9,431 nucleotides of DNA, from the NCBI GenBank assembly GCA_964463155.1, contig CAYXAY010000029.1, positions 1 through 9,431 of the forward strand, given 5' to 3'. Shown here in pieces: positions 1-9,431 of this stretch. The first letter of the stretch is position 1. The number at the start of each line of letters is the position of its first letter. The DNA is from an uncultured archaeon. Lineage in GTDB: Archaea; Iainarchaeota; Iainarchaeia; Iainarchaeales; CSSED10-239. The notes beneath the pieces were generated by a model. That model made no database searches. It was not told the DNA's origin and saw nothing but the letters and a program-made list of their open reading frames with translations. The translations under genes and the position numbers were made by a program.

Positions 1-215
1 ATAACAATTTCAAAATAAATTCGGATTTAATTGTATAATTAAATAATTATTTATATTTGTTTTTATTATTAATAGTTTTAATAATTAATAGTATACATAA
101 TACCAAGCTTTTAATTTATTAATTTAATACAAGAATTCAAGGGTTATATAACATAATCTAATAGAAAGAACATTAATAAACAATAAAAAATAGAATAAAA
201 AGATAAATAATTAAT

Positions 216-596
216 TTATCTTCTTCCAGCTGTTGAGTATTTACTCTTATAGCCAATATACTTCTTTCTGATCTTTGAGTCATAATCATTCTCTGGCTCT
301 TCAGATACATGAGTTCTTGGCATTTCTCTTTCAGCTACTGGAACATTACCTGAATTAATAAGAATAATATCATCTACTGATATAACCTTCTTATAAGGTA
401 TACTATGTTCTGTCATTATTTTCTTAGCTTCTTTCTTTGAGCTAACCTTTAATGGCTGAGTAGTAATTGTTTCAATTATACCTGATTCTAAGTTTACAAC
501 TAAATCATAAACCTTTCCTCTATATGTAGCATTTGTCTCATATAGGTCCATACCAAATAGCTTTGAAATTCTCATTGTCATGTTTTCTTCCTCCAA
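216..596 (-). CDS. Small PRC-barrel-like domain protein (126 aa as given; the true start may be internal)
   Basis: The intact ORF has an N-terminal segment, LFGMDLYETNATYRGKVYDLVVNLESGIIETI, that fits the PRC-barrel pattern (G..V.d..G..lG.V.D.v.d...g.i). The C-terminal tail is basic. A GGAGG at 590-594 (minus strand) lies 8 nt upstream of the in-frame ATG at 581-579, so translation may start at Met6 (581) or Met8 (575) rather than 596. Confidence 0.55.
   Translation of the reverse strand: MEEENMTMRISKLFGMDLYETNATYRGKVYDLVVNLESGIIETITTQPLKVSSKKEAKKIMTEHSIPYKKVISVDDIILINSGNVPVAEREMPRTHVSEEPENDYDSKIRKKYIGYKSKYSTAGRR
590..594 (-). promoter_or_regulatory. Shine-Dalgarno-like GGAGG serving the internal ATG at 581
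   Basis: The minus strand reads ATGGAGGAAGAAAACATGACAATGAGA. The GGAGG is 8 nt from the second ATG. Confidence 0.35.
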
Positions 597-736
597 AAAT
601 TAAACATATATTTTATTAGTATACTAAAAGGTTATACGAAGGGTTTATATATATTACTATTTTAAAAAACAAAAAAATAATAATTGATATTTTGCTTTTC
701 AAATTCTAATACAGGAAGTATAGGGGTAAAAATAAA

Positions 737-1585
737 CTATTTTATATTATCTAATGGATTTTCTATTTCTTTTAGCTTATTTGTATTAACCTTTGTATAA
801 ATTTGAGTAGTATTAAGATTAGCATGCCCTAAAAGCTGTTGAATATATCTAATATTAACATCATTTTCAAGAAGACTTGTTGCAAAAGAATGCCTTAGTT
901 TATGTGGACTAATACTTTTTGTAATTCCTGCCTTTTTTGCAGAAATCTTTAAGAATTTTTGAATGGTATCTACAGAAAGAGGGTTACCTGAATCGGAACA
1001 GAAAAGATATTCTGACTTAACTTTCTTATTTCTTTCTTCAATATATTTTTTATAATCAACAACCCATTTCTTAGAAAGAATAATAACTCTATCTTTATTG
1101 CCCTTACCTCTAATAACATTACCTGTATATTCATCAAAATTAAGATCAGTAACCTTCATATTTACACATTCAGAAACCCTAACACCTGTTGAAAACATAA
1201 ATTCAATAATTAATTTATTACGATAATTACTAGTATTATCAATCAAATCTTTGATTTCTTTATGGGTTAGAACCACCGGTATCTTTTTTGCCTTTTTTGG
1301 TAATTTTATATTTATTAATATATTCTGTTTTAAAAATTCATTATAAAAATGTTTAATAGCAGAAAGAACAAGATTCATTGTAGCTGAACCTGATTTTTTA
1401 TTGGTTTTTAAATGCGATAAAAAATTAACAATATCATCAGAACTAACTTCCTTTAAATCTTTTTTAATATAATCAGCAAACAAATTTAAATATATTAAAT
1501 AAGTTTCAATTGTCTTTTGACTATATCCAATTATATTTAATTCATTCTCAAATTTTTTAAGAATTTCTGAATTTTTTGTATCCAT
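737..1585 (-). CDS. xerA: Tyrosine site-specific recombinase, Xer family (archaeal XerA-like)
   Basis: The 282-aa protein has an N-terminal SAM-like core-binding domain (GYSQKTIETYLIYLNLFADYI). The full catalytic signature is present: TGVRVSE (Arg), RGKGNKDRV (Lys), HKLRHSFAT (His-x-x-Arg), and LGHANLNTTQIYTKV (His plus the nucleophilic Tyr). Confidence 0.88.
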   Translation of the reverse strand: MDTKNSEILKKFENELNIIGYSQKTIETYLIYLNLFADYIKKDLKEVSSDDIVNFLSHLKTNKKSGSATMNLVLSAIKHFYNEFLKQNILINIKLPKKAKKIPVVLTHKEIKDLIDNTSNYRNKLIIEFMFSTGVRVSECVNMKVTDLNFDEYTGNVIRGKGNKDRVIILSKKWVVDYKKYIEERNKKVKSEYLFCSDSGNPLSVDTIQKFLKISAKKAGITKSISPHKLRHSFATSLLENDVNIRYIQQLLGHANLNTTQIYTKVNTNKLKEIENPLDNIK

Positions 1586-1753
1586 ATTTCCCTATAACTA
1601 TTAGAACAGAAATAATTATAAACGGGATTATGCCGAAAATTCATTTCAATAATCAAATTATTTCTTTTTTAAAAGTTTATATATCTAAATCAATAACTAA
1701 CTATTTCCCGTAATCGCTAATAAACACTAATAACAAAAATAAAACCAAAACTC

Positions 1754-1761
1754 TTTATAAA
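1754..1761 (+). promoter_or_regulatory. TATA-box-like element (TTTATAAA) upstream of nrdD
   Basis: This matches the archaeal TATA consensus. It lies only 5 nt before the ATG at 1766 but about 56 nt before the ATG at 1817. If it is used, the transcript would start downstream of 1766. AT-rich DNA has many TATA-like strings (for example 1677-1685), so this is tentative. Confidence 0.3.
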
Positions 1762-1765
1762 CATA

Positions 1766-3847
1766 ATGAGTAACAATATTATACTTTTTTTAAAATTACT
1801 ATCAAACGTGGATTTAATGACCATTAAACAAATTATAAACAGAAAAGAAGAAAAAACTAACTATAATATTTATAAAATCAAATTAGCCTTGCTTAAGGCG
1901 CTTGATGCAATAGATAATCCAGACATAGATCTTGCAGATTATCTAACAAAAAAAATAGATAACACATTGACCACAGAATATTTTGAAAAAAATAAAATTC
2001 CTACAATAGACAACATACAAGACATTATTGAAGATGTTTTAATTAAAGAAGGACTAACCAAATTAGTAAAAGCTTATGTAATTTATAGAAAACAACACGA
2101 CGATATAAGAGAAATATCAAGTTTAATAGATAGTACAAATGCAGTTGAAAGTTACATTAATATTTCTGATTGGCAAGTTAAAGAAAACAGCAACATGGAT
2201 TATTCATTACAAGGTTTAAATAATTATCTTTCAACAAAAATAATCTCTGATTACTGGATAAAAAAGATATATCCTCAAGAAATAAGAGAAGCCCATGAAA
2301 AAAGACAAATACATTTGCACGATCTAAACACTCTTGGTCCATATTGTGTGGGTTGGGATCTCCAATTTGTTTTACAAAACGGTTTTAAGGGGGCCCCCGG
2401 AAAGATAGTAGCATCTCCGCCAAAACACCTTAACGTTGCATTAGGACAGATTGTAAATTTTATTTACACTCTGCAAGGAGAATCGGCAGGAGCGCAAGCA
2501 TTCAGCAATTTTGACACGCTTCTTTCACCATTCATTTATTATGACAAAATAGATTACAAAAGAATAAGAGCTGAATTGGAAACTTTTTTATATAATATGA
2601 ATGTACCTACAAGAACAGGTTATCAAACTCCATTTTCGAATATCACTTTAGATTTGACAATTCCTTTAACCCTAAAGGATCAACCAGTAATAATTGGAGG
2701 AAAACCACAAGACAAAACATATGGTGAATTTCAAAAAGAAATGGGTCTTTTTAACACCGCGTTGCTTGATGTTCTTTTAGAAGGAGACGCTTCAGGAAAT
2801 ATGTTTTCATTTCCAATACCAACAATTAATGTCACAAAAGATTTTGATTGGTCTAGCCCTCTTTCAGATAAATTAATAGAATTAACAATAAAATATGGAA
2901 CACCGTATTTTGCAAATTTTGTTAATTCAGATATGAAACCAGAAGACGCAAGAAGCATGTGCTGTAGATTAAGACTTGACAATAGAGAACTCCAAAAAAG
3001 AGGAGGAGGACTTTTTGGGTCTAACCCTTTAACAGGTTCAATTGGAGTTGTAACAATTAATCTTGCTCAAATAGGTTATTTAGCAAAAACAGAAGAAGAA
3101 TATTTTGAAACATTAGGACATTTAATGGACCTTTCAAGAAAATCATTAGACATAAAAAGAAAAATTGTTGAAAAATACACCGATGATGGACTATACCCTT
3201 ATTCTAAATACAATCTTAAGACTATAAAAGAAAGATTTGGAAATTATTGGAAAAATCATTTTTCAACTATAGGCCTTCTTGGCATGAACGAGTCTTGTCT
3301 TAATTTTTTAGGTGAGCCCATATATACAGAAAAAGGGAGGGCCTTTGCAAACAAAGTAATGGATTTTATGCGAGAAAAAATACAAAAATACCAAGAAGAT
3401 ACTCATACATTATATAATCTGGAAGCAACGCCAGGAGAAGGGACAACTTACAGATTTGCAACACATGACAAAAAGAAATATCCTTCCATACTTGTTGCAA
3501 ACGAAGAAAATTACCGCAATAAAGGGGTCCAACCATATTACACAAACTCTACTCAAATCCCAGTAAACTATACAAATGACGTTTTTGAAATACTTGATTT
3601 ACAAGACGAATTGCAATGCAAATACACTGGAGGCACAGTCATACATTTTTTTATAGGAGAAAAGAAACCATCAAAAGAAGCCATTAAGTCTTTAATAAAA
3701 AAAATCACTTTAAATTACAAATTGCCTTACTTTACATTTACTCCTACATTTTCGGTTTGCCCAAAGCACGGATATTTATTTGGAGAACACGAGTATTGTC
3801 CTAAGTGTGATGATGAAATAGGTTATAAAGGTGAAAAACATGAGTGA
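1766..3847 (+). CDS. nrdD: Anaerobic (class III) ribonucleoside-triphosphate reductase NrdD, main body without the glycyl-radical C-terminus
   Basis: An N-terminal ATP-cone-like segment starts at Met18 (MTIKQIINRKEEKTNYNIYKIKL...AYVIYRKQ). The active-site motif is SMCCRLRLD (Cys codons 2960-2965), followed by GGGLFGSNPLTGSIGVVTINL and YYTNSTQIP. The C-terminal Zn-ribbon is CPKH...CPKC. The ORF stops 12 residues after CPKC and never reaches the RVxGY glycyl-radical motif. The likely true start is the ATG at 1817. Confidence 0.9.
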   Translation: MSNNIILFLKLLSNVDLMTIKQIINRKEEKTNYNIYKIKLALLKALDAIDNPDIDLADYLTKKIDNTLTTEYFEKNKIPTIDNIQDIIEDVLIKEGLTKLVKAYVIYRKQHDDIREISSLIDSTNAVESYINISDWQVKENSNMDYSLQGLNNYLSTKIISDYWIKKIYPQEIREAHEKRQIHLHDLNTLGPYCVGWDLQFVLQNGFKGAPGKIVASPPKHLNVALGQIVNFIYTLQGESAGAQAFSNFDTLLSPFIYYDKIDYKRIRAELETFLYNMNVPTRTGYQTPFSNITLDLTIPLTLKDQPVIIGGKPQDKTYGEFQKEMGLFNTALLDVLLEGDASGNMFSFPIPTINVTKDFDWSSPLSDKLIELTIKYGTPYFANFVNSDMKPEDARSMCCRLRLDNRELQKRGGGLFGSNPLTGSIGVVTINLAQIGYLAKTEEEYFETLGHLMDLSRKSLDIKRKIVEKYTDDGLYPYSKYNLKTIKERFGNYWKNHFSTIGLLGMNESCLNFLGEPIYTEKGRAFANKVMDFMREKIQKYQEDTHTLYNLEATPGEGTTYRFATHDKKKYPSILVANEENYRNKGVQPYYTNSTQIPVNYTNDVFEILDLQDELQCKYTGGTVIHFFIGEKKPSKEAIKSLIKKITLNYKLPYFTFTPTFSVCPKHGYLFGEHEYCPKCDDEIGYKGEKHE

Positions 3848-3983
3848 AAATACAAACGAAAAAAGAACCAAATGTGAAGTATATTCTAGAGTTGTTGGCT
3901 ATGTAAGAAGGGTCGATGCATGGAATTATGGAAAGCAAGCAGAGTTTAAAGATAGAAGGTTATTTTCCGTTCCTGAAAAATAA
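3840..3983 (+). CDS. nrdD: NrdD glycyl-radical domain encoded as a separate 47-aa ORF in the +1 frame (absent from the supplied ORF track)
   Basis: My translation is MSENTNEKRTKCEVYSRVVGYVRRVDAWNYGKQAEFKDRRLFSVPEK. It matches the conserved NrdD C-terminus (E. coli ...RRVCGYLG...NAGKQEE..R). The radical Gly codon is GGC at 3897-3899. The ATG at 3840 overlaps the upstream TGA (3845-3847) as ATGAGTGA. This frame opens after a TAG at 3819-3821, and there is an alternative GTG at 3831. Confidence 0.7.
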   Translation: MSENTNEKRTKCEVYSRVVGYVRRVDAWNYGKQAEFKDRRLFSVPEK

Positions 3984-3994
3984 AATGATAAAAT

Positions 3995-4660
3995 ATGACG
4001 TTAAAGATAGGCGCATTTGAGAAATTAAGTACAATAGATTATCCAGATAAAGTTGCTTGTGTTATATTTTTCAAAGGCTGTAATTTTGCATGTGGATTTT
4101 GTTACAATAAACAACTAGTTGTCCCAGAGTATTTTAATGAAACAAAAGAGCATCTAGAAAACGAAATACATTATTTCTTGGACAAACGAAAAGGACTTAT
4201 CGACGCAGTTGTTTTAACAGGCGGAGAACCCACAATTTTCGGGGAGAGCCTTATTAAATTCATAAAAGAAATAAAATCAAAGAATTATTTAGTAAAACTA
4301 GACACTAACGGTTCTAATCCTTACATTCTAGAGAAAATTATCTCGCAAAAATTAGTTGACTACATAGCCATGGACATAAAAGACGAGTTTGATTATTATT
4401 ACAAATACACAAACGTACCAATAGAAAACATTAAAAAATCAATTGACATTTTAAAGTCAACAAAAATTCCCCACGAATTTAGAATAACAACACACCCTGA
4501 GCTTACAATTAAATCTTTTTATAATATATTAGATCTAGTCAATGGAGAAAAAACAGTTGTCCAAGATTTCGTAAATAAAAACACAATTAATGAATATAAA
4601 AAACCGCACACAATATACTCTAAATTATCCAAGACAGACAAGCGATATATTTTGAGATAA
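3995..4660 (+). CDS. nrdG: Anaerobic RNR activating enzyme NrdG (radical SAM)
   Basis: The CxxxCxxC cluster motif is CNFACGFC (4079-4102), preceded by STIDYPDKVACVIFFKG. The SAM-binding motif is VVLTGGEPT. At 221 aa, the size and position right after nrdD are typical. Confidence 0.9.
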   Translation: MTLKIGAFEKLSTIDYPDKVACVIFFKGCNFACGFCYNKQLVVPEYFNETKEHLENEIHYFLDKRKGLIDAVVLTGGEPTIFGESLIKFIKEIKSKNYLVKLDTNGSNPYILEKIISQKLVDYIAMDIKDEFDYYYKYTNVPIENIKKSIDILKSTKIPHEFRITTHPELTIKSFYNILDLVNGEKTVVQDFVNKNTINEYKKPHTIYSKLSKTDKRYILR

Positions 4661-4671
4661 AGGCGATTAAT

Positions 4672-6720
4672 ATGCCATTTGTTAACACAATAACTCACAA
4701 ATCAGGAGAAACCGAAGAATTCTCAAAGGAAAAAACCGCAATTGCTTTATTTGAAATAATGTGCAACATTGGAGAACCTAATCTGAATCTTGCTGAAAAA
4801 CTTGCCTTTCTAATATACGACAAAGTAAATGCAAAGTTTTCAAAAGAGATTTCCAAAGAAAAACTAGAAGAATTAATAAAAGAAACACTTCTAAAAGAAA
4901 ATCAAACTGAATTATTGCAAGCATATATCTTAAAAAGAAATAAACTAGAAACACCAACAAACGATTCTGAAATCAAAAAGCACATTTTAAAAGAAATACT
5001 GAATTTATCTGATTCAGATAATGTTTCAGCAACATTAATTTCAATAAATGCACTAATAAACAAACTTCAAAATAATCAATATGAAAAATTAAACAAAAAA
5101 ATATTTGATTATATAAGAGAAGGGGCATTTTATCCAAGTTTCACAACATTAAGAGAAATTGGACACAACAACCAAATAACCTCCGGTTATTCATTTAAAA
5201 TTAAGGACAACCTAGAAAGCATTTTTAATATTCTAGCAATATCAAGTAAAGCCCAAAAATTTGGAGCTACAGTATCAATAGACCTTTCAGAAGTAAGGTC
5301 TGAAAAAGACAAGGTAAAATCCATAAATAGAGATGCGTGCGGCCCAGTAAAAATCATTGATTTATTTGTGTCTGCTAAATCACTTATCGGTTACAATACA
5401 AATGCCTCCAACAATCTATTTTACATATCTATTGAACACCCTGATATCATACAAGTTATGAATTATTTTTCAATAAATAAAACAGATAATTTCGCAATCA
5501 TAGTTCCTGACAGATTTATGCAAGCATTACTAACCAATCAAGAATACACAATAGAAAACAATACAATAGAAAGAAGAATACAACCATCAACTTTATTTGA
5601 TTTTATTTCTTCCAAGATAACAACCGGAGAAAAAATAAATTTGATTTTTAAAGACACCATAGACAAGAAAAACCCGTTTATTAACAACTACAAAAACTAT
5701 GCTATATCTCCAATAGGTTTGCAACCTTGTTTTGAAAATAACACGTTTATTACTGGAACAATAGACATATCAATACTGATTAATACCATCGGCAAAACAA
5801 AAATATTTGACTGGGCAAAATTAAAAACCATAATCTGGGATTCTTTGGAGTTTTTGGACAATATGATAGATTTATCTGAACAAGTAGATGAAGAACACTC
5901 AAAAAACCTTAAAGAAACAAGACAAACATATCTTACAATTACTGGTTTTGCAACTGCATTATCCAAACTAAACATAGCTTATGATAGCGATGACGCAATT
6001 TATTTTGCAGATTCTTTATCAGATTACATTTCATTTTACACAAAACTTCGTTCAACAGAACTTGCTAAAAACAAAGGCCCATTCTTGAAATTTATTAAAA
6101 GCAAATACGAGCGATCTAATTTTTCTTTTGAAAAAACCACTATTCAAAGAACTTTATTTTCAACAGACCTTTCTGTCTCAAAAAAACTAAACAAAAACAT
6201 GCCAAATATAGATTGGATAGAACTTAAAAACAACATAAAAAAATACGGCTTAAGAAATGCCACCACTTTTTCAATAATATTTTCTGATTTTTACTCTATA
6301 GCAAACGAGACAAGCAATGCTATAGAACCAATCTGTTCTTACAAACCAATCTATTGGATAAACGGCTACAAATCAGAAAAGATTAACAAAGAGATATCTC
6401 TTCAGGTTCCTTACTTAAATAATAACTGGTCAGAAGAGGCGCTAGAATCAGCAATCCCTGATCACCTAAAATACAACATCCCGCTTGCAAAAACAATATC
6501 CTCGCGGTTTTTTATTAGATTACAATCCGTTTTTGAAAAAAACACCGACGGCACAGTAAATCTTAAAACCTATTTTACTGAAAACACCACAATACAAGAG
6601 ATTAAAGATTTAATAATTGAAAGCCACAAGATTGGAAACACTTGCTTTCTACCAGAAAAATTAAATCCCCACATAAAAGACTTTAATACCGAAAACAGAA
6701 AAGGAATGATGAGTCTATAG
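4672..6720 (+). CDS. ATP-cone plus class II (NrdJ-like) RNR-fold protein with substituted catalytic residues; predicted pseudoenzyme or regulatory paralogue
   Basis: The ATP-cone is ITHKSGETEEFSKEKTAIAL...LLQAYILKRNK (residues 1 to about 91). The RNR core motifs appear in the correct order: YPSFTTL...ITSGYSFKIKDNLESIF (versus PNSPTL...LSACFVxPVEDSxEGIF), DACGPVKII, IEHPDIIQVM...DNFAIIVPDRFMQAL, GEKINLIFKDTIDKKNP, ISPIGLQPCFENNTFITGTIDIS (versus [23 protein letters not shown]), and ETSNAIEP (versus sSGIEP). The start is 11 nt after the nrdG stop. Confidence 0.8.
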   Translation: MPFVNTITHKSGETEEFSKEKTAIALFEIMCNIGEPNLNLAEKLAFLIYDKVNAKFSKEISKEKLEELIKETLLKENQTELLQAYILKRNKLETPTNDSEIKKHILKEILNLSDSDNVSATLISINALINKLQNNQYEKLNKKIFDYIREGAFYPSFTTLREIGHNNQITSGYSFKIKDNLESIFNILAISSKAQKFGATVSIDLSEVRSEKDKVKSINRDACGPVKIIDLFVSAKSLIGYNTNASNNLFYISIEHPDIIQVMNYFSINKTDNFAIIVPDRFMQALLTNQEYTIENNTIERRIQPSTLFDFISSKITTGEKINLIFKDTIDKKNPFINNYKNYAISPIGLQPCFENNTFITGTIDISILINTIGKTKIFDWAKLKTIIWDSLEFLDNMIDLSEQVDEEHSKNLKETRQTYLTITGFATALSKLNIAYDSDDAIYFADSLSDYISFYTKLRSTELAKNKGPFLKFIKSKYERSNFSFEKTTIQRTLFSTDLSVSKKLNKNMPNIDWIELKNNIKKYGLRNATTFSIIFSDFYSIANETSNAIEPICSYKPIYWINGYKSEKINKEISLQVPYLNNNWSEEALESAIPDHLKYNIPLAKTISSRFFIRLQSVFEKNTDGTVNLKTYFTENTTIQEIKDLIIESHKIGNTCFLPEKLNPHIKDFNTENRKGMMSL

Positions 6721-6779
6721 AAGAAATGTGTATGAAATCAAAAGAAGATATAGAAAAAAGAATACAAGAAATAAAACCG

Positions 6780-6803
6780 TTTTTTGAGTAATTGACTTTT
6801 TTT
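6780..6803 (+). terminator. Oligo-T tracts (T6 at 6780-6785, T7 at 6797-6803), a likely archaeal-type terminator for the nrd cluster
   Basis: These are the first T-runs of 6 nt or more after the stop at 6720. Further T-runs lie at 6817-6821 and 6837-6843. Confidence 0.4.
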
Positions 6804-6982
6804 CTTGCATTAATTGTTTTTACAGTAATTAATATATTTTTTTAAACACCAAGAAATCTAAAATACACGACGGTGGTTCTTTTCACAGGTTTTGTAATTT
6901 CTTTGATTCTCCAGAAACCTTACCTTTACAAGACATTTAAACCAATACTTCTAAACAACAAAAGATTGGAAGAACTAGCAAG

Positions 6983-6997
6983 AAAAAGCCTAAAAAA
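6983..6997 (-). terminator. Oligo-T tracts (T6 then T5 on the minus strand) just downstream of the cdc48 stop
   Basis: After the TAA, the minus strand reads ATTGTTTC TTTTTT AGGC TTTTT. Confidence 0.4.
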
Positions 6998-7005
6998 GAA
7001 ACAAT

Positions 7006-9210
7006 TTATCTAATAGCATAACCCTTTTCTTTTTCTTCAGGACTTTCTTTTTTTATCTTTAATTTTTCTATAGCTTTTAAGAACGCATCCTTACTTACCA
7101 CAGGCCGCGTCTCTGTTTTCTTTTCCTTAACCCCGTTTTCCGATTCTTCAATAATTAGTCTGATTCTTGAAAGTCCAGCTTCTCTGCAGATTGCTTCAAT
7201 CTCTGCTCCTGAAAAACCATCTGTTTCTTTTGCAAGTTCTTTAGCATTGACTTTTTTATCTACACTCATTTTACCAATATAAACCTCAAATATCTTTTCT
7301 CTTGTAAATTCCTCAGGCAAAGGAACCAAAAGAAGTTTTTCAAATCTTCCTGGCCTTAAAAAAGCAGGATCTATAAGATCAGGACGATTAGTTGCTCCAA
7401 TAACAATAATGTCTTTAAGATTTGATATGCCATCTATTTCTGTAAGCAATTGAGCTATAACTGTGTTTTTTGCTTCACTTGTTTCAAATCCTGTTCTTCC
7501 AGAAGTGATTGAATCAATCTCGTCAATAAAAACAATGCTTGGTGCAAGTTGCCTTGCTTTCTTAAAAATATCTCTTATTCTCTTTTCAGATTCTCCCACC
7601 CATTTACTAAATATTTCTGGGCCTTTAATAGAAATAAAATTTGCATTTGTTTCTGTTGCAACAGCTTTAGCAAGCAATGTTTTTCCAGTTCCTGGAGGTC
7701 CATATAATAAAACCCCGCGCGGAGCAGTAATTCCTACATTTTCAAATAATTTTTTGTGTTTCATTGGCCATTCAATCATTTCTTTTAATTGTTGTTTAGT
7801 ATCTTCAAGTCCACCTATATCTTCCCATTTTACATTAGGTATTTGAACAAGCACTTCCCTAATAGCCGAAGGCTCAACAACATTTAATGCATCCAAAAAA
7901 TCCTGTCTTGTAATAACAAGAGCGTCCATTATTTCTTTTGAAAGTTCTAAACCCGTTTCTTTGTTAATCTTTGGCATCAATCTCTTTAAGGCCTTGATTG
8001 CTGCCTCTTTACAAAGAGCAGAGACGTCTGCTCCAGAAAAGCCATTTGTAAATTCCAAAAGTTCATCAATCTTAACATCTTCAGTTAATGGCATTCCTCT
8101 AGTGTGCACCAAAAATATTTCTTTTCTTGCGTCTTTTGTAGGAATATTAATCTCAATTTCTCTATCAAATCTTCCTGGCCTTCTAAGAGCGGGGTCAATA
8201 GATTCAGGAATATTTGTTGCGCCAATAACAACAACATCCCCTCTAGCTTTTAATCCATCCATTAATGTCAAAAGTTGAGCAACAATTCTTTTCTCTGTTT
8301 CTCCATGTATATTTTCTCTTCTTGGAGCAATAGCGTCAATCTCATCAATAAAAATAATTGCAGGCGCGTTCTTTTCTGCTTCTGAAAAAATATTTCTTAA
8401 GTTTTCCTCTGATTTGCCATATACTCCACTAACAATCTCTGGGCCGTTTATTATTGTAAAATTAGAATCTGTCTCTGAAGCAACAGCCTTAGCAAGCAAT
8501 GTTTTTCCAGTTCCTGGAGGTCCATAAAGTAAAATCCCTTTAGGTGGAGTTATTCCAAGTTTTTTAAAAACTTCTGGTCTTCTGATAGGGAGTTCAACCA
8601 TTTCTCTAATACTTTCTATTTCTTTTTTAAGTCCCCCAATATCATCATAAGTAATACCATATTTACTTGTCTCAATTGGTTTTTCAGAAATTGTTAATTT
8701 TGTGTTTGCAGTAATCTTAACAGGCCCCTTTGGCAAAGCTTTGGTTACTGTTAAGGAAAGATCTCTTGATTCTTCATTAATAAATATTTTAATTCCTCTT
8801 ACAACAACAACATTTCCCTCAAGTATGTTTTTGTTAATAATCCTATCATGAATATAACTTATAATATCGTTTCTTTTAAGATCAGGAATCTCAACAGGCG
8901 GAGCAAGAGTTATTGATTGAGCTATTTGGCAGTTTATCTTTTCAATAAACACATCTTCATCAATCCTAGAATTAGAGTTGAATCTAATATTACCATCAAT
9001 TCTTATGATATTAAGTCCAGTGTCCGCAACCTTTCCTCTAATTGCATAGGCAATCACAAACTTATCAATTTTAGTATTGCTAATTTTAATAGTGTCACCA
9101 GTAGTTAAACCCATTCTTTCAAATATAATAGGATCAATCTTTGCTATGTCTTTACCTACATCATAGATTTCTGCATCTCTAACAGTAAGTCTCGCTTTTT
9201 CTACAGCCAT
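7006..9210 (-). CDS. cdc48: Cdc48/VAT/p97-family double-ring AAA+ ATPase
   Basis: The 734-aa protein has a Cdc48-type N domain (ARLTVRDAE...GDTIKISN...IRIDGNIRFN). It has two AAA modules, each with Walker A GPPGTGKTLLAKAV, Walker B FIDEID, and an Arg-finger region (ATNIPESIDPALRRPGRFDREI and ATNRPDLIDPAFLRPGRFEKLL). The D2 pore loop is SKWVGESE. Confidence 0.95.
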   Translation of the reverse strand: MAVEKARLTVRDAEIYDVGKDIAKIDPIIFERMGLTTGDTIKISNTKIDKFVIAYAIRGKVADTGLNIIRIDGNIRFNSNSRIDEDVFIEKINCQIAQSITLAPPVEIPDLKRNDIISYIHDRIINKNILEGNVVVVRGIKIFINEESRDLSLTVTKALPKGPVKITANTKLTISEKPIETSKYGITYDDIGGLKKEIESIREMVELPIRRPEVFKKLGITPPKGILLYGPPGTGKTLLAKAVASETDSNFTIINGPEIVSGVYGKSEENLRNIFSEAEKNAPAIIFIDEIDAIAPRRENIHGETEKRIVAQLLTLMDGLKARGDVVVIGATNIPESIDPALRRPGRFDREIEINIPTKDARKEIFLVHTRGMPLTEDVKIDELLEFTNGFSGADVSALCKEAAIKALKRLMPKINKETGLELSKEIMDALVITRQDFLDALNVVEPSAIREVLVQIPNVKWEDIGGLEDTKQQLKEMIEWPMKHKKLFENVGITAPRGVLLYGPPGTGKTLLAKAVATETNANFISIKGPEIFSKWVGESEKRIRDIFKKARQLAPSIVFIDEIDSITSGRTGFETSEAKNTVIAQLLTEIDGISNLKDIIVIGATNRPDLIDPAFLRPGRFEKLLLVPLPEEFTREKIFEVYIGKMSVDKKVNAKELAKETDGFSGAEIEAICREAGLSRIRLIIEESENGVKEKKTETRPVVSKDAFLKAIEKLKIKKESPEEKEKGYAIR

Positions 9211-9241
9211 AATAAATCTAATAATATTGTATTAGAAATAA

Positions 9242-9249
9242 TTTATAAA
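9242..9249 (-). promoter_or_regulatory. TATA-box-like element (TTTATAAA, palindromic) about 35 nt upstream of the cdc48 ATG
   Basis: The position is consistent with an archaeal promoter and a short 5' UTR. Confidence 0.4.
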
Positions 9250-9319
9250 CAACAACTAAATAGAATTAGGAACTGAAATTATTAAAAGTTTTGTGTAAAA
9301 AGCATTATTAATTAAATCC

Positions 9320-9359
9320 TCGGCAGTATACTGCACATTTATGTGCTGATGAATGCCGA
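9320..9359. other. Nested inverted repeat: outer TCGGCA/TGCCGA, inner GCACAT-TT-ATGTGC
   Basis: The outer arms are at 9320-9325 and 9354-9359. The inner arms are at 9333-9338 and 9341-9346. The element is relatively GC-rich within an AT-rich intergenic region, 110-150 nt upstream of the cdc48 start. Confidence 0.3.
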
Positions 9360-9396
9360 ATAAATATTTTTAAACTATTTCTACTATTACTCCTAT

Positions 9397-9417
9397 AAAA
9401 AAAGCCGCTTCGCGGCT
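9397..9417 (-). terminator. GC-rich hairpin followed by T7 on the minus strand; probable terminator of a minus-strand gene beyond the right edge of the window
   Basis: The minus strand reads AGCCGC-GAA-GCGGCT followed by TTTTTT(T), which is the plus-strand A-run at 9397-9403. The element is flanked by the 8-bp inverted repeat CTCCTATA (9390-9397) and TATAGGAG (9424-9431). Confidence 0.45.
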
Positions 9418-9431
9418 ATAAAATATAGGAG

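Follow-up and report, generated by a model that had tools for sequence, protein, structure and literature searches.

Class III ribonucleotide reductases (RNRs) of the NrdD type are canonically single-chain enzymes that run, in order, through an ATP-cone, a barrel with the finger-loop cysteine, a Zn ribbon, the Gly loop RVxGY, and a C-terminal tail. Here we analyze an nrdD locus in 9,431 nucleotides of DNA from an uncultured archaeon (NCBI GenBank assembly GCA_964463155.1, contig CAYXAY010000029.1, positions 1 to 9,431 of the forward strand; this whole stretch is hereafter the window), in which a cut separates the Zn ribbon from the Gly loop and a 47-residue open reading frame (ORF) carries the latter. 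The canonical NrdD proteins and their NrdG activases, from phage T4 (1H79), Thermotoga maritima (4COI/4U3E), and Prevotella copri (8P23), share with the window the same domain order, an adjoining activase, and homology throughout; apart from the cut, the window differs from them by ~20 extra residues at the junction (31 versus 11). We consider it very probable that this locus encodes a naturally split class III RNR, a genuine two-polypeptide enzyme, and the split is a widespread, conserved two-gene architecture rather than a peculiarity of one contig.

A small, free-standing radical-glycine protein likewise serves a large barrel protein in the case of GrcA/YfiD of Escherichia coli and Y06I of phage T4, which Wagner et al. 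are said to have described in 2001 as a spare part for pyruvate formate-lyase (PFL). To our knowledge, the sole free radical module is this PFL repair protein, GrcA. GrcA has 127 residues, is homologous to the C terminus of PFL, and rescues the full-length enzyme after oxygen cleavage, whereas the window peptide has 47 residues and is homologous to NrdD. Furthermore, the gene for the window peptide has the body gene on one side and the activase gene on the other, and the partner body of the peptide has no Gly loop, while the partner of a GrcA-type protein has a radical domain of its own. Since the partner body lacks such a domain, the peptide would be an obligatory subunit rather than a spare part of the kind that GrcA, an autonomous glycyl-radical cofactor, provides for PFL (PMC8683613). 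The sole Pfam match of the small protein is NRDD, with no match to Gly_radical (PF01228) and so no homology to the PFL C terminus, and neither Pfam nor NCBIfam holds a model dedicated to it. The analogy to GrcA is functional only, and the peptide is not a member of the GrcA family.

Within RNRs, the nearest architectural precedent is the split class II enzyme NrdJa/NrdJb of Pseudomonas aeruginosa (Crona et al. 2015, as cited in PMC9669993), in which the catalytic chain is likewise encoded by two consecutive genes with a C-terminal module on the second. That enzyme differs in belonging to the B12 class and in that the second piece carries Zn-finger/IscU-like domains that shuttle reductant, not the radical site. 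Class I RNRs, with their alpha and beta subunits, likewise hold a stable radical on a polypeptide apart from the catalytic barrel, but beta, a ferritin-like protein, is unrelated, and its tyrosyl radical is generated by a metal and transferred over a long range, whereas the window peptide is a piece of the catalytic chain itself that has been set apart and presumably sits inside the barrel. Glycyl-radical enzymes have been described as single chains with their own C-terminal radical glycine (PMC13450708, PMC9669993), with no mention there of a split class III form. Full-text literature searches, with most subscription papers outside their coverage, returned no description of a split NrdD, and the split class III architecture is apparently undescribed.

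Two adjoining reading frames and their products

On the forward strand, the body ORF spans positions 1766 to 3847 (693 amino acids) and ends in ...CPKCDDEIGYKGEKHE (at greater length, ...FSVCPKHGYLFGEHEYCPKCDDEIGYKGEKHE), its stop lying 12 residues past the Zn ribbon. The small ORF (3840 to 3983), in frame +1 relative to the body ORF, encodes the 47 residues MSENTNEKRTKCEVYSRVVGYVRRVDAWNYGKQAEFKDRRLFSVPEK. The two share an 8-nucleotide (nt) start/stop overlap, ATGAGTGA (3840 to 3847), which contains the ATG of the small ORF and the TGA of the body. Just ahead of this overlap lies a run of five A residues (A5; 3834 to 3838), and a Shine-Dalgarno (SD)-like GGTGA (3830 to 3834) is found within the body coding sequence, 5 nt 5′ of the small-ORF ATG. 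A preliminary description of this DNA, made from its letters and translations, had reported these ORF ends, the A5 run, the overlap, and the RVVGY of the small ORF, all of which were borne out on rechecking. It had also estimated that ~30 residues separate the Zn ribbon from the radical glycine and had located the extra residues at the junction. Both statements hold: the linker from the last Zn cysteine to the Gly is 31 residues long (a 12-residue tail plus a 19-residue leader), compared to 11 or 16 in fused relatives.

Family profiles divide at this junction. The Pfam NRDD profile (PF13597) matched the large ORF over profile positions 1 to 531 (E = 9e-174), identifying a class III RNR barrel, and the small ORF over positions 532 to 562 (E = 9e-10). 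NCBIfam NF006126 divided likewise, with positions 2 to 650 on the body (980 bits against a cut-off of 548) and 648 to 683 on the small product. When aligned to T. maritima NrdD (4COI), the body covered residues 98 to 609, the last of them in CPVCG, and a profile of the small proteins covered residues 616 to 645 around RIVGY. Other hallmarks of class III enzymes were also found, namely, finger-loop cysteines, a C-terminal Zn ribbon, and an adjoining nrdG gene. The RVxGY motif, which belongs on the barrel polypeptide in this class, is absent from the 693-residue ORF and present in the adjoining 47-residue ORF. All the usual NrdD motifs are retained but spread over two separately translatable ORFs, and the activase gene is next: nrdG, a radical S-adenosylmethionine activase (3995 to 4660, +), lies 11 nt 3′ of the small ORF and scored 180 bits against the NrdG2 model TIGR02495 (cut-off of 131).

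The small ORF product, a putative glycyl-radical subunit, comprises a basic leader, Cys12, EVYSRVVG20Y, and then WNxGKxxEFxDR. The predicted radical site, Gly20 (codon GGC; 3897 to 3899), aligns with the Gly of RIVGY in T. maritima NrdD and is invariant in our small-protein alignment (A2); across 24 aligned small proteins, the invariant residues are C12, S16, R17, G20, N29, K32, E35, and R39. A profile of the small proteins matched 7,993 database proteins at E ≤ 1e-3 among 8,000 scored, and the best 120 are all 41 to 75 residues long, with source names such as "hypothetical protein," "anaerobic ribonucleoside-triphosphate reductase," and "class III large subunit." A cysteine eight residues ahead of the radical Gly (Cys12 in the window; 3873 to 3875) is shared by all 120 of these best-scoring free-standing peptides and is present at 38 of the 39 split loci, while the matching position in fused relatives is variable (C, T, or N); Cys12 might serve as a further Zn ligand or tie the peptide to the body. 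Between the window and the relative L001, whose body is 89% identical, the small ORF has a nonsynonymous divergence (dN) of 0.20 and a synonymous divergence (dS) of 0.67, for a dN/dS ratio of 0.30, and is under purifying selection. The same comparison gave ratios of ~0.04 for the body and ~0.07 for nrdG, with dS saturated for both.

The body (1817 to 3847, +) comprises an ATP-cone (E = 7e-13), the class III barrel, and the Zn ribbon, without the radical glycine. Since relatives begin with MxxKQIINRKEEK at the matching residue, its start is probably M18 (ATG at 1817, not 1766), which gives a protein of 676 residues. In the numbering of the 693-residue ORF, the ATP-cone (PF03477, 49 bits), the allosteric activity domain, covers residues 22 to 112 (1829 to 2101). 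The adjacent cysteines of the finger loop (SMCCR; 2960 to 2965) were aligned by phmmer to SCCRL of 4COI and are invariant in our alignment of bodies (A1). We take this Cys-Cys pair in T. maritima NrdD to be the thiyl-radical site and a signature of the thioredoxin-type NrdD2 subclass. Besides the Cys-Cys pair, the body aligned to the T. maritima protein shows a conserved Glu (NLE; NIE in T. maritima) and a third active-site Cys in YC(V)GW; according to Wei et al. in 2014, the thioredoxin-dependent NrdD2 subclass is reportedly marked by these three features. From these residues we infer a thioredoxin-type (NrdD2) reduction of the enzyme. In the relative L003, a thioredoxin gene comes after nrdG. 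The final conserved element of the body is the Zn ribbon (CPKH...CPKC; 3758 to 3808), with ligands C665-x2-H668 and C678-x2-C681, whose C, H, C, and C columns are invariant in A1. Beyond it lies the 12-residue C-terminal tail DDEIGYKGEKHE (3809 to 3844). A comparison of tails across loci showed that a D-x-E-I-G-Y motif is typical of split bodies, while in most fused forms a G directly follows CxxC.

Split and fused forms among relatives

We asked how often this break recurs. Among the best 120 homologues of the body (57 to 100% identity), ~104 stop just past the Zn ribbon and 16 carry a C-terminal RVxGY; named sources include Diapherotrites, Nanoarchaeota, Aenigmarchaeota, Uhrbacteria, Parcubacteria, and Patescibacteria. 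We then compared 84 loci, composed of 80 from species-representative genomes together with loci fetched earlier and the window, and screened them for the Gly motif with variants such as NYN, QRITGY, and RPVGF included by hand checks and looser patterns. Thirty-nine were split and 45 fused, and a downstream Gly-loop ORF of 38 to 102 residues was present at every split body. Body and peptide ORFs are spaced −20 to +189 nt apart (811 nt at one locus), and each of the relative frames 0, 1, and 2 is represented. An SD-like motif of the GGAGGTG type precedes the small ORF at roughly 22 of these 39 loci, the window among them, and is lacking in most of 15 loci of the CPR (candidate phyla radiation) type. 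In fused forms, the linker from the last Zn cysteine to the Gly has 11 residues at 38 of the 45 loci and 16 at the other seven, all from Syntrophomonas. L001 illustrates the split layout, with a 49-nt spacer containing GGGGGG, a 48-residue ORF (METELESKRQKCEVYSRVVGF...), nrdG, and an RNR-like gene as in the window. In a Uhrbacteria contig, the spacer is 60 nt long and contains GGGAGGAG, and a 46-residue ORF follows; in a Nanoarchaeota genome, an 89-residue ORF lies beyond a spacer of 17 nt. The order of body, small ORF, and nrdG is also found in L001, L003, and L084 to L087. Because dozens of related small-genome archaea and bacteria have their nrdD broken at this same point, we regard the break as real architecture and not a sequencing error. 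The preliminary description had preferred a split gene with its own start, and the conservation of two ORFs, the purifying selection, and the SD-like motifs in roughly 22 of 39 loci support that choice.

One alternative is that a 1-base insertion in the A5 run, through assembly or sequencing error or strain mutation, broke a single-chain nrdD, the true or ancestral gene being fused. Removal of one A does join the frames, as ...GYKGENMSENTNEK..., and the contig is metagenomic. However, close relatives in the window's own clade (bodies 70 to 89% identical) are all split, and none has the homopolymer context at its junction: spacings are −8 nt in the window (ATGAGTGA), −8 nt in L084 (ATGAATGA; 86% identity, with an overlap geometry identical to that of the window), −4 nt in L085 (ATGA), +4 nt in L086, +44 nt in L087, and +49 nt in L001. 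Moreover, run SRR11582140 as assembled independently in Logan (L088) matches window positions 1781 to 6207 at 100% identity and reproduces the junction, A5 and ATGAGTGA included. The 11-residue linker of fused relatives, compared to the 31 residues here, and the placement of the SD-like motif and ATG exactly as a separate gene requires also argue against an error. Given relatives without the homopolymer and an identical independent assembly, we exclude the A5 explanation for practical purposes. The preliminary description had raised such an error, or a strain-specific pseudogene, and had pointed to the junction in related genomes as the place to look; there, the split is kept in close and distant relatives with differing sequences, spacings, and frames.

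Alternatively, programmed frameshifting (+1 in the window) or stop readthrough could yield a single fused NrdD, such that the ORFs would never give separate proteins. The small-ORF frame is open back past the body stop in the window and at 16 other split loci, and the ORFs of locus L019 are in frame with a single stop between them. To count joinable cases, we considered 44 split loci, i.e., those of the survey and loci fetched later. Twelve are in frame 0 with 1 to 8 stops between the pieces and 15 have a blocking stop in the small-ORF frame within the gap, which leaves 17, including the window, that are formally joinable by one shift, and these would need shifts in both directions. No conserved slippery site is present, gaps extend to 189 nt (811 nt in one case), and many small ORFs have their own SD motif and ATG. 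Rfam and tRNA scans of the window gave no matches and no known recoding element. No single recoding mechanism fits these frame and gap counts, while separate initiation does. As one shift would not bring the pieces together at 27 of these 44 loci, the +1 frameshift that the preliminary description had listed fails as a general mechanism, and we judge recoding to be a very unlikely source of the enzyme.

The public gene call on this contig (P0001, 707 residues; L088, positions 1 to 2109) reads the TGA at 3845 as Trp and continues to a TAG, ending ...EKHEWKYKRKKNQMWSIF (window positions 3845 to 3895), which implies a call of the code 4 type. Since the remaining ORFs of the window are all intact under code 11, this looks like a gene-caller artefact that hides the stop.

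One fused protein links the two forms. P0110 (745 residues, metagenomic) is a fused NrdD, and within its 44-residue linker both split-type motifs occur, the tail as CPKCDAEIGY and the leader as KKRQRCEVYSR. As both motifs are held in one chain, the two pieces are parts of one enzyme; P0110 itself is either a re-fusion or a long-linker intermediate en route to fission.

Split forms were found in DPANN (Diapherotrites, Parvarchaeota, Aenigmarchaeota, Nanoarchaeota, and Nanohaloarchaeota) archaea, here Woese-, Pace-, Nano-, and Micrarchaeota and the Diapherotrites-like clade of the window, as well as in many CPR/Patescibacteria bins, Elusimicrobia, and single Bacillota and Acetothermia bins. Fused forms were found in Bathyarchaeia, Syntrophomonas, Syntrophales, Omnitrophota, and some CPR bins. 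A neighbor-joining tree of bodies, rooted at its midpoint and rough, without support values, implies at least six changes between split and fused states, and in it the split Elusimicrobia clade is nested among fused Omnitrophota. The Elusimicrobia loci (L022, L035, L038, L047, and L072) have heptad-like helical extensions at both new termini, with bodies ending in ...KAERMQELEHKVKLLEEQLYSK and peptides starting with MTAQEKQAIENKISELKREMNE, and their peptide tails are Cys rich (GCGCECASDK). The distinct junction and the heptad-like helices on both new termini suggest that the Elusimicrobia split had an independent origin, with what may be a zipper-like (coiled-coil) tether.

Two CPR-like bins (L046 and L067) encode small proteins of 94 to 102 residues with their own CxxC...CxxC ahead of the Gly loop VYSRVVGFHTP, and their bodies keep the Zn ribbon; this layout is a third predicted junction architecture. 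Viral contigs of the NrdD family in IMG/VR are mostly fused, and a few (L089, L101, L122, and L153, with virus status as classed for the contigs) are split; these few may be real viruses or misbinned CPR or DPANN DNA.

A proposed two-subunit enzyme and its possible advantage

These sequences are best read as a class III RNR with two obligate subunits: the body would work together with a radical peptide activated by NrdG. The first gene would be translated into the 676-residue body, with its ATP-cone, ten-stranded barrel bearing the Cys-Cys finger loop, and Zn ribbon, and the second, from an ATG overlapping the stop of the first and with its own GGTGA, into the 47-residue peptide bearing the radical glycine. 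The Gly loop of the peptide would insert noncovalently into the barrel, at the place taken by the covalent C terminus in ordinary NrdD. NrdG would take the hydrogen of Gly20 while the peptide is free or loosely bound, and the radical would then pass from Gly20 to the finger-loop cysteine. Cryo-electron microscopy and hydrogen-deuterium exchange have shown that single-chain NrdD has a highly mobile radical domain (PMC11226230), and a noncovalent version is therefore plausible.

Several points weigh against such an enzyme. Both the binding of the peptide to the body and its activation would have to occur as the sequences predict. AlphaFold2 applied to the concatenated pair, with an alignment of 38 rows, modeled the body confidently but gave residues 672 to 723 a predicted local distance difference test (pLDDT) score below 50 and left the Gly loop unplaced; in a control with the natural fused protein P0040 and the same shallow alignment, the Gly loop (residues 663 to 675) also scored below 50, and the unplaced loop is accordingly no evidence against docking. 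The small-ORF frame in the window is open for 26 nt ahead of the body stop, and a +1 shift product is formally possible. It is possible, too, that a second, full-length nrdD lies elsewhere in the genome, beyond the 9.4-kb window. Finally, the adaptive idea of a "replaceable fuse," considered below, draws on analogy.

If there were such a second gene, the small protein could be a GrcA-like spare part for the full-length NrdD, and the adjoining truncated body might be inactive or regulatory. GrcA/YfiD is a precedent for a free-standing glycyl-radical module (PMC8683613), and the window covers 9.4 kb alone. However, the body retains every invariant catalytic and allosteric motif, and is strongly constrained, with the dN/dS of ~0.04 given above, and body and peptide are always adjacent, usually to nrdG as well. 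Split lineages are also mostly tiny-genome organisms, in which two nrdD copies would be unlikely. We therefore see only a slim chance for a spare part and favor the obligate two-subunit enzyme.

Glycyl-radical proteins are cut by oxygen at their glycine. With two subunits, only the 47-residue piece might then need to be replaced after cleavage, and access to the activase might be easier for a free radical loop. By extension, one could propose a widespread, obligately two-subunit class III RNR with its radical on an exchangeable peptide of 40 to 50 residues, which arose or was kept repeatedly in DPANN, CPR, and Elusimicrobia as a replaceable fuse that allows the 78-kDa body to be reused. We offer this only tentatively and consider it rather doubtful in full. 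Alternatively, the two-piece enzyme may be real and its split neutral, arising by fission at a flexible linker and then spreading by drift or gene transfer among small-genome lineages, with no benefit for repair or activation. Consistent with neutrality, the break lies within a variable, probably disordered linker, a fused long-linker form exists (P0110), the tree requires at least six transitions between split and fused states, and the lengths of tail and leader vary greatly. On the other hand, the split recurs and persists over deep divergence, and the heptad-like extensions on both termini in Elusimicrobia hint at selection for assembly, though they are not proof that the split is advantageous; the CxxC...CxxC of the L046 and L067 small proteins is a similar hint. 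A neutral split is a serious contender, if one we would stop short of endorsing, and cheap replacement and neutral fission at a tolerant linker seem about equally good as accounts of why the pieces are separate.

Whichever account holds, a two-piece NrdD would give studies of how NrdG gains access to a buried glycine and activates it a minimal, naturally occurring peptide substrate, as well as a direct test of radical-module exchange after oxygen damage. A radical loop that works without a covalent tie would also bear on the evolution of class I and class II RNRs, with their separate radical sources, from a class III-like ancestor. If the exchangeable-peptide proposal were true, this would be the first glycyl-radical enzyme with its radical site natively on a separate subunit and an architectural bridge to class I RNRs, and no natural substrate of a glycyl-radical activase would be smaller than the peptide. 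There are consequences for annotation as well: proteins of 41 to 75 residues with the names "hypothetical" or "anaerobic RNR" number in the thousands, as do "NrdD" entries without the radical glycine. In automated pipelines, split bodies and peptides may be mistaken for pseudogenes or fragments, and the P0001 call for this contig, with its TGA read as Trp, is a case in point.

Intein-like insertions and neighboring genes

In the closest relatives (P0004 to P0013, P0016, P0018, and L087 at 1501 to 4494), bodies of ~995 residues have an intein-like insertion of ~320 residues after ...NVPTRVGYQ|C. The window nrdD has no such insertion, while these relatives combine intein and split. We considered whether the two pieces might be a split protein joined by intein trans-splicing and rejected this candidate, as neither the 12-residue tail nor an 11-residue leader contains intein motifs and the intein of the relatives is elsewhere in the barrel.

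Directly past nrdG, at 4672 to 6720 (+), is a gene for a 682-residue protein with an ATP-cone and a class II-like RNR barrel, which scored 181 bits against an NrdJ cut-off of 961. In an alignment to T. maritima NrdJ (1XJE), the Cys of the T. maritima stretch "lsaCf" is opposite Gly172 (or Ser174 if shifted), N-P-C-G-E is opposite S-P-I-G-L, with a Q-P-C-F-E 4 residues further on, and the Cys of "eaCnlg" is opposite Phe359. These T. maritima positions are the redox Cys134, the catalytic N320/C322/E324, and Cys333, respectively. The product may be a degenerate or unusual RNR paralogue. Its gene is kept in the same position, at 75% identity, in L001 and L084 to L087.

Flanking genes, base composition, and nearest named relatives together place the contig in a DPANN archaeon. 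Upstream of the body, a XerC/XerA-like tyrosine recombinase is encoded at 737 to 1585 (−), with the same synteny in L001 and L085 to L087; in three of those four, a PRC-barrel gene lies further out. Downstream, an archaeal CDC48 AAA ATPase is encoded at 7006 to 9210 (−). The contig has a GC content of 23 to 34%, and its nearest named relatives are "Candidatus Diapherotrites."

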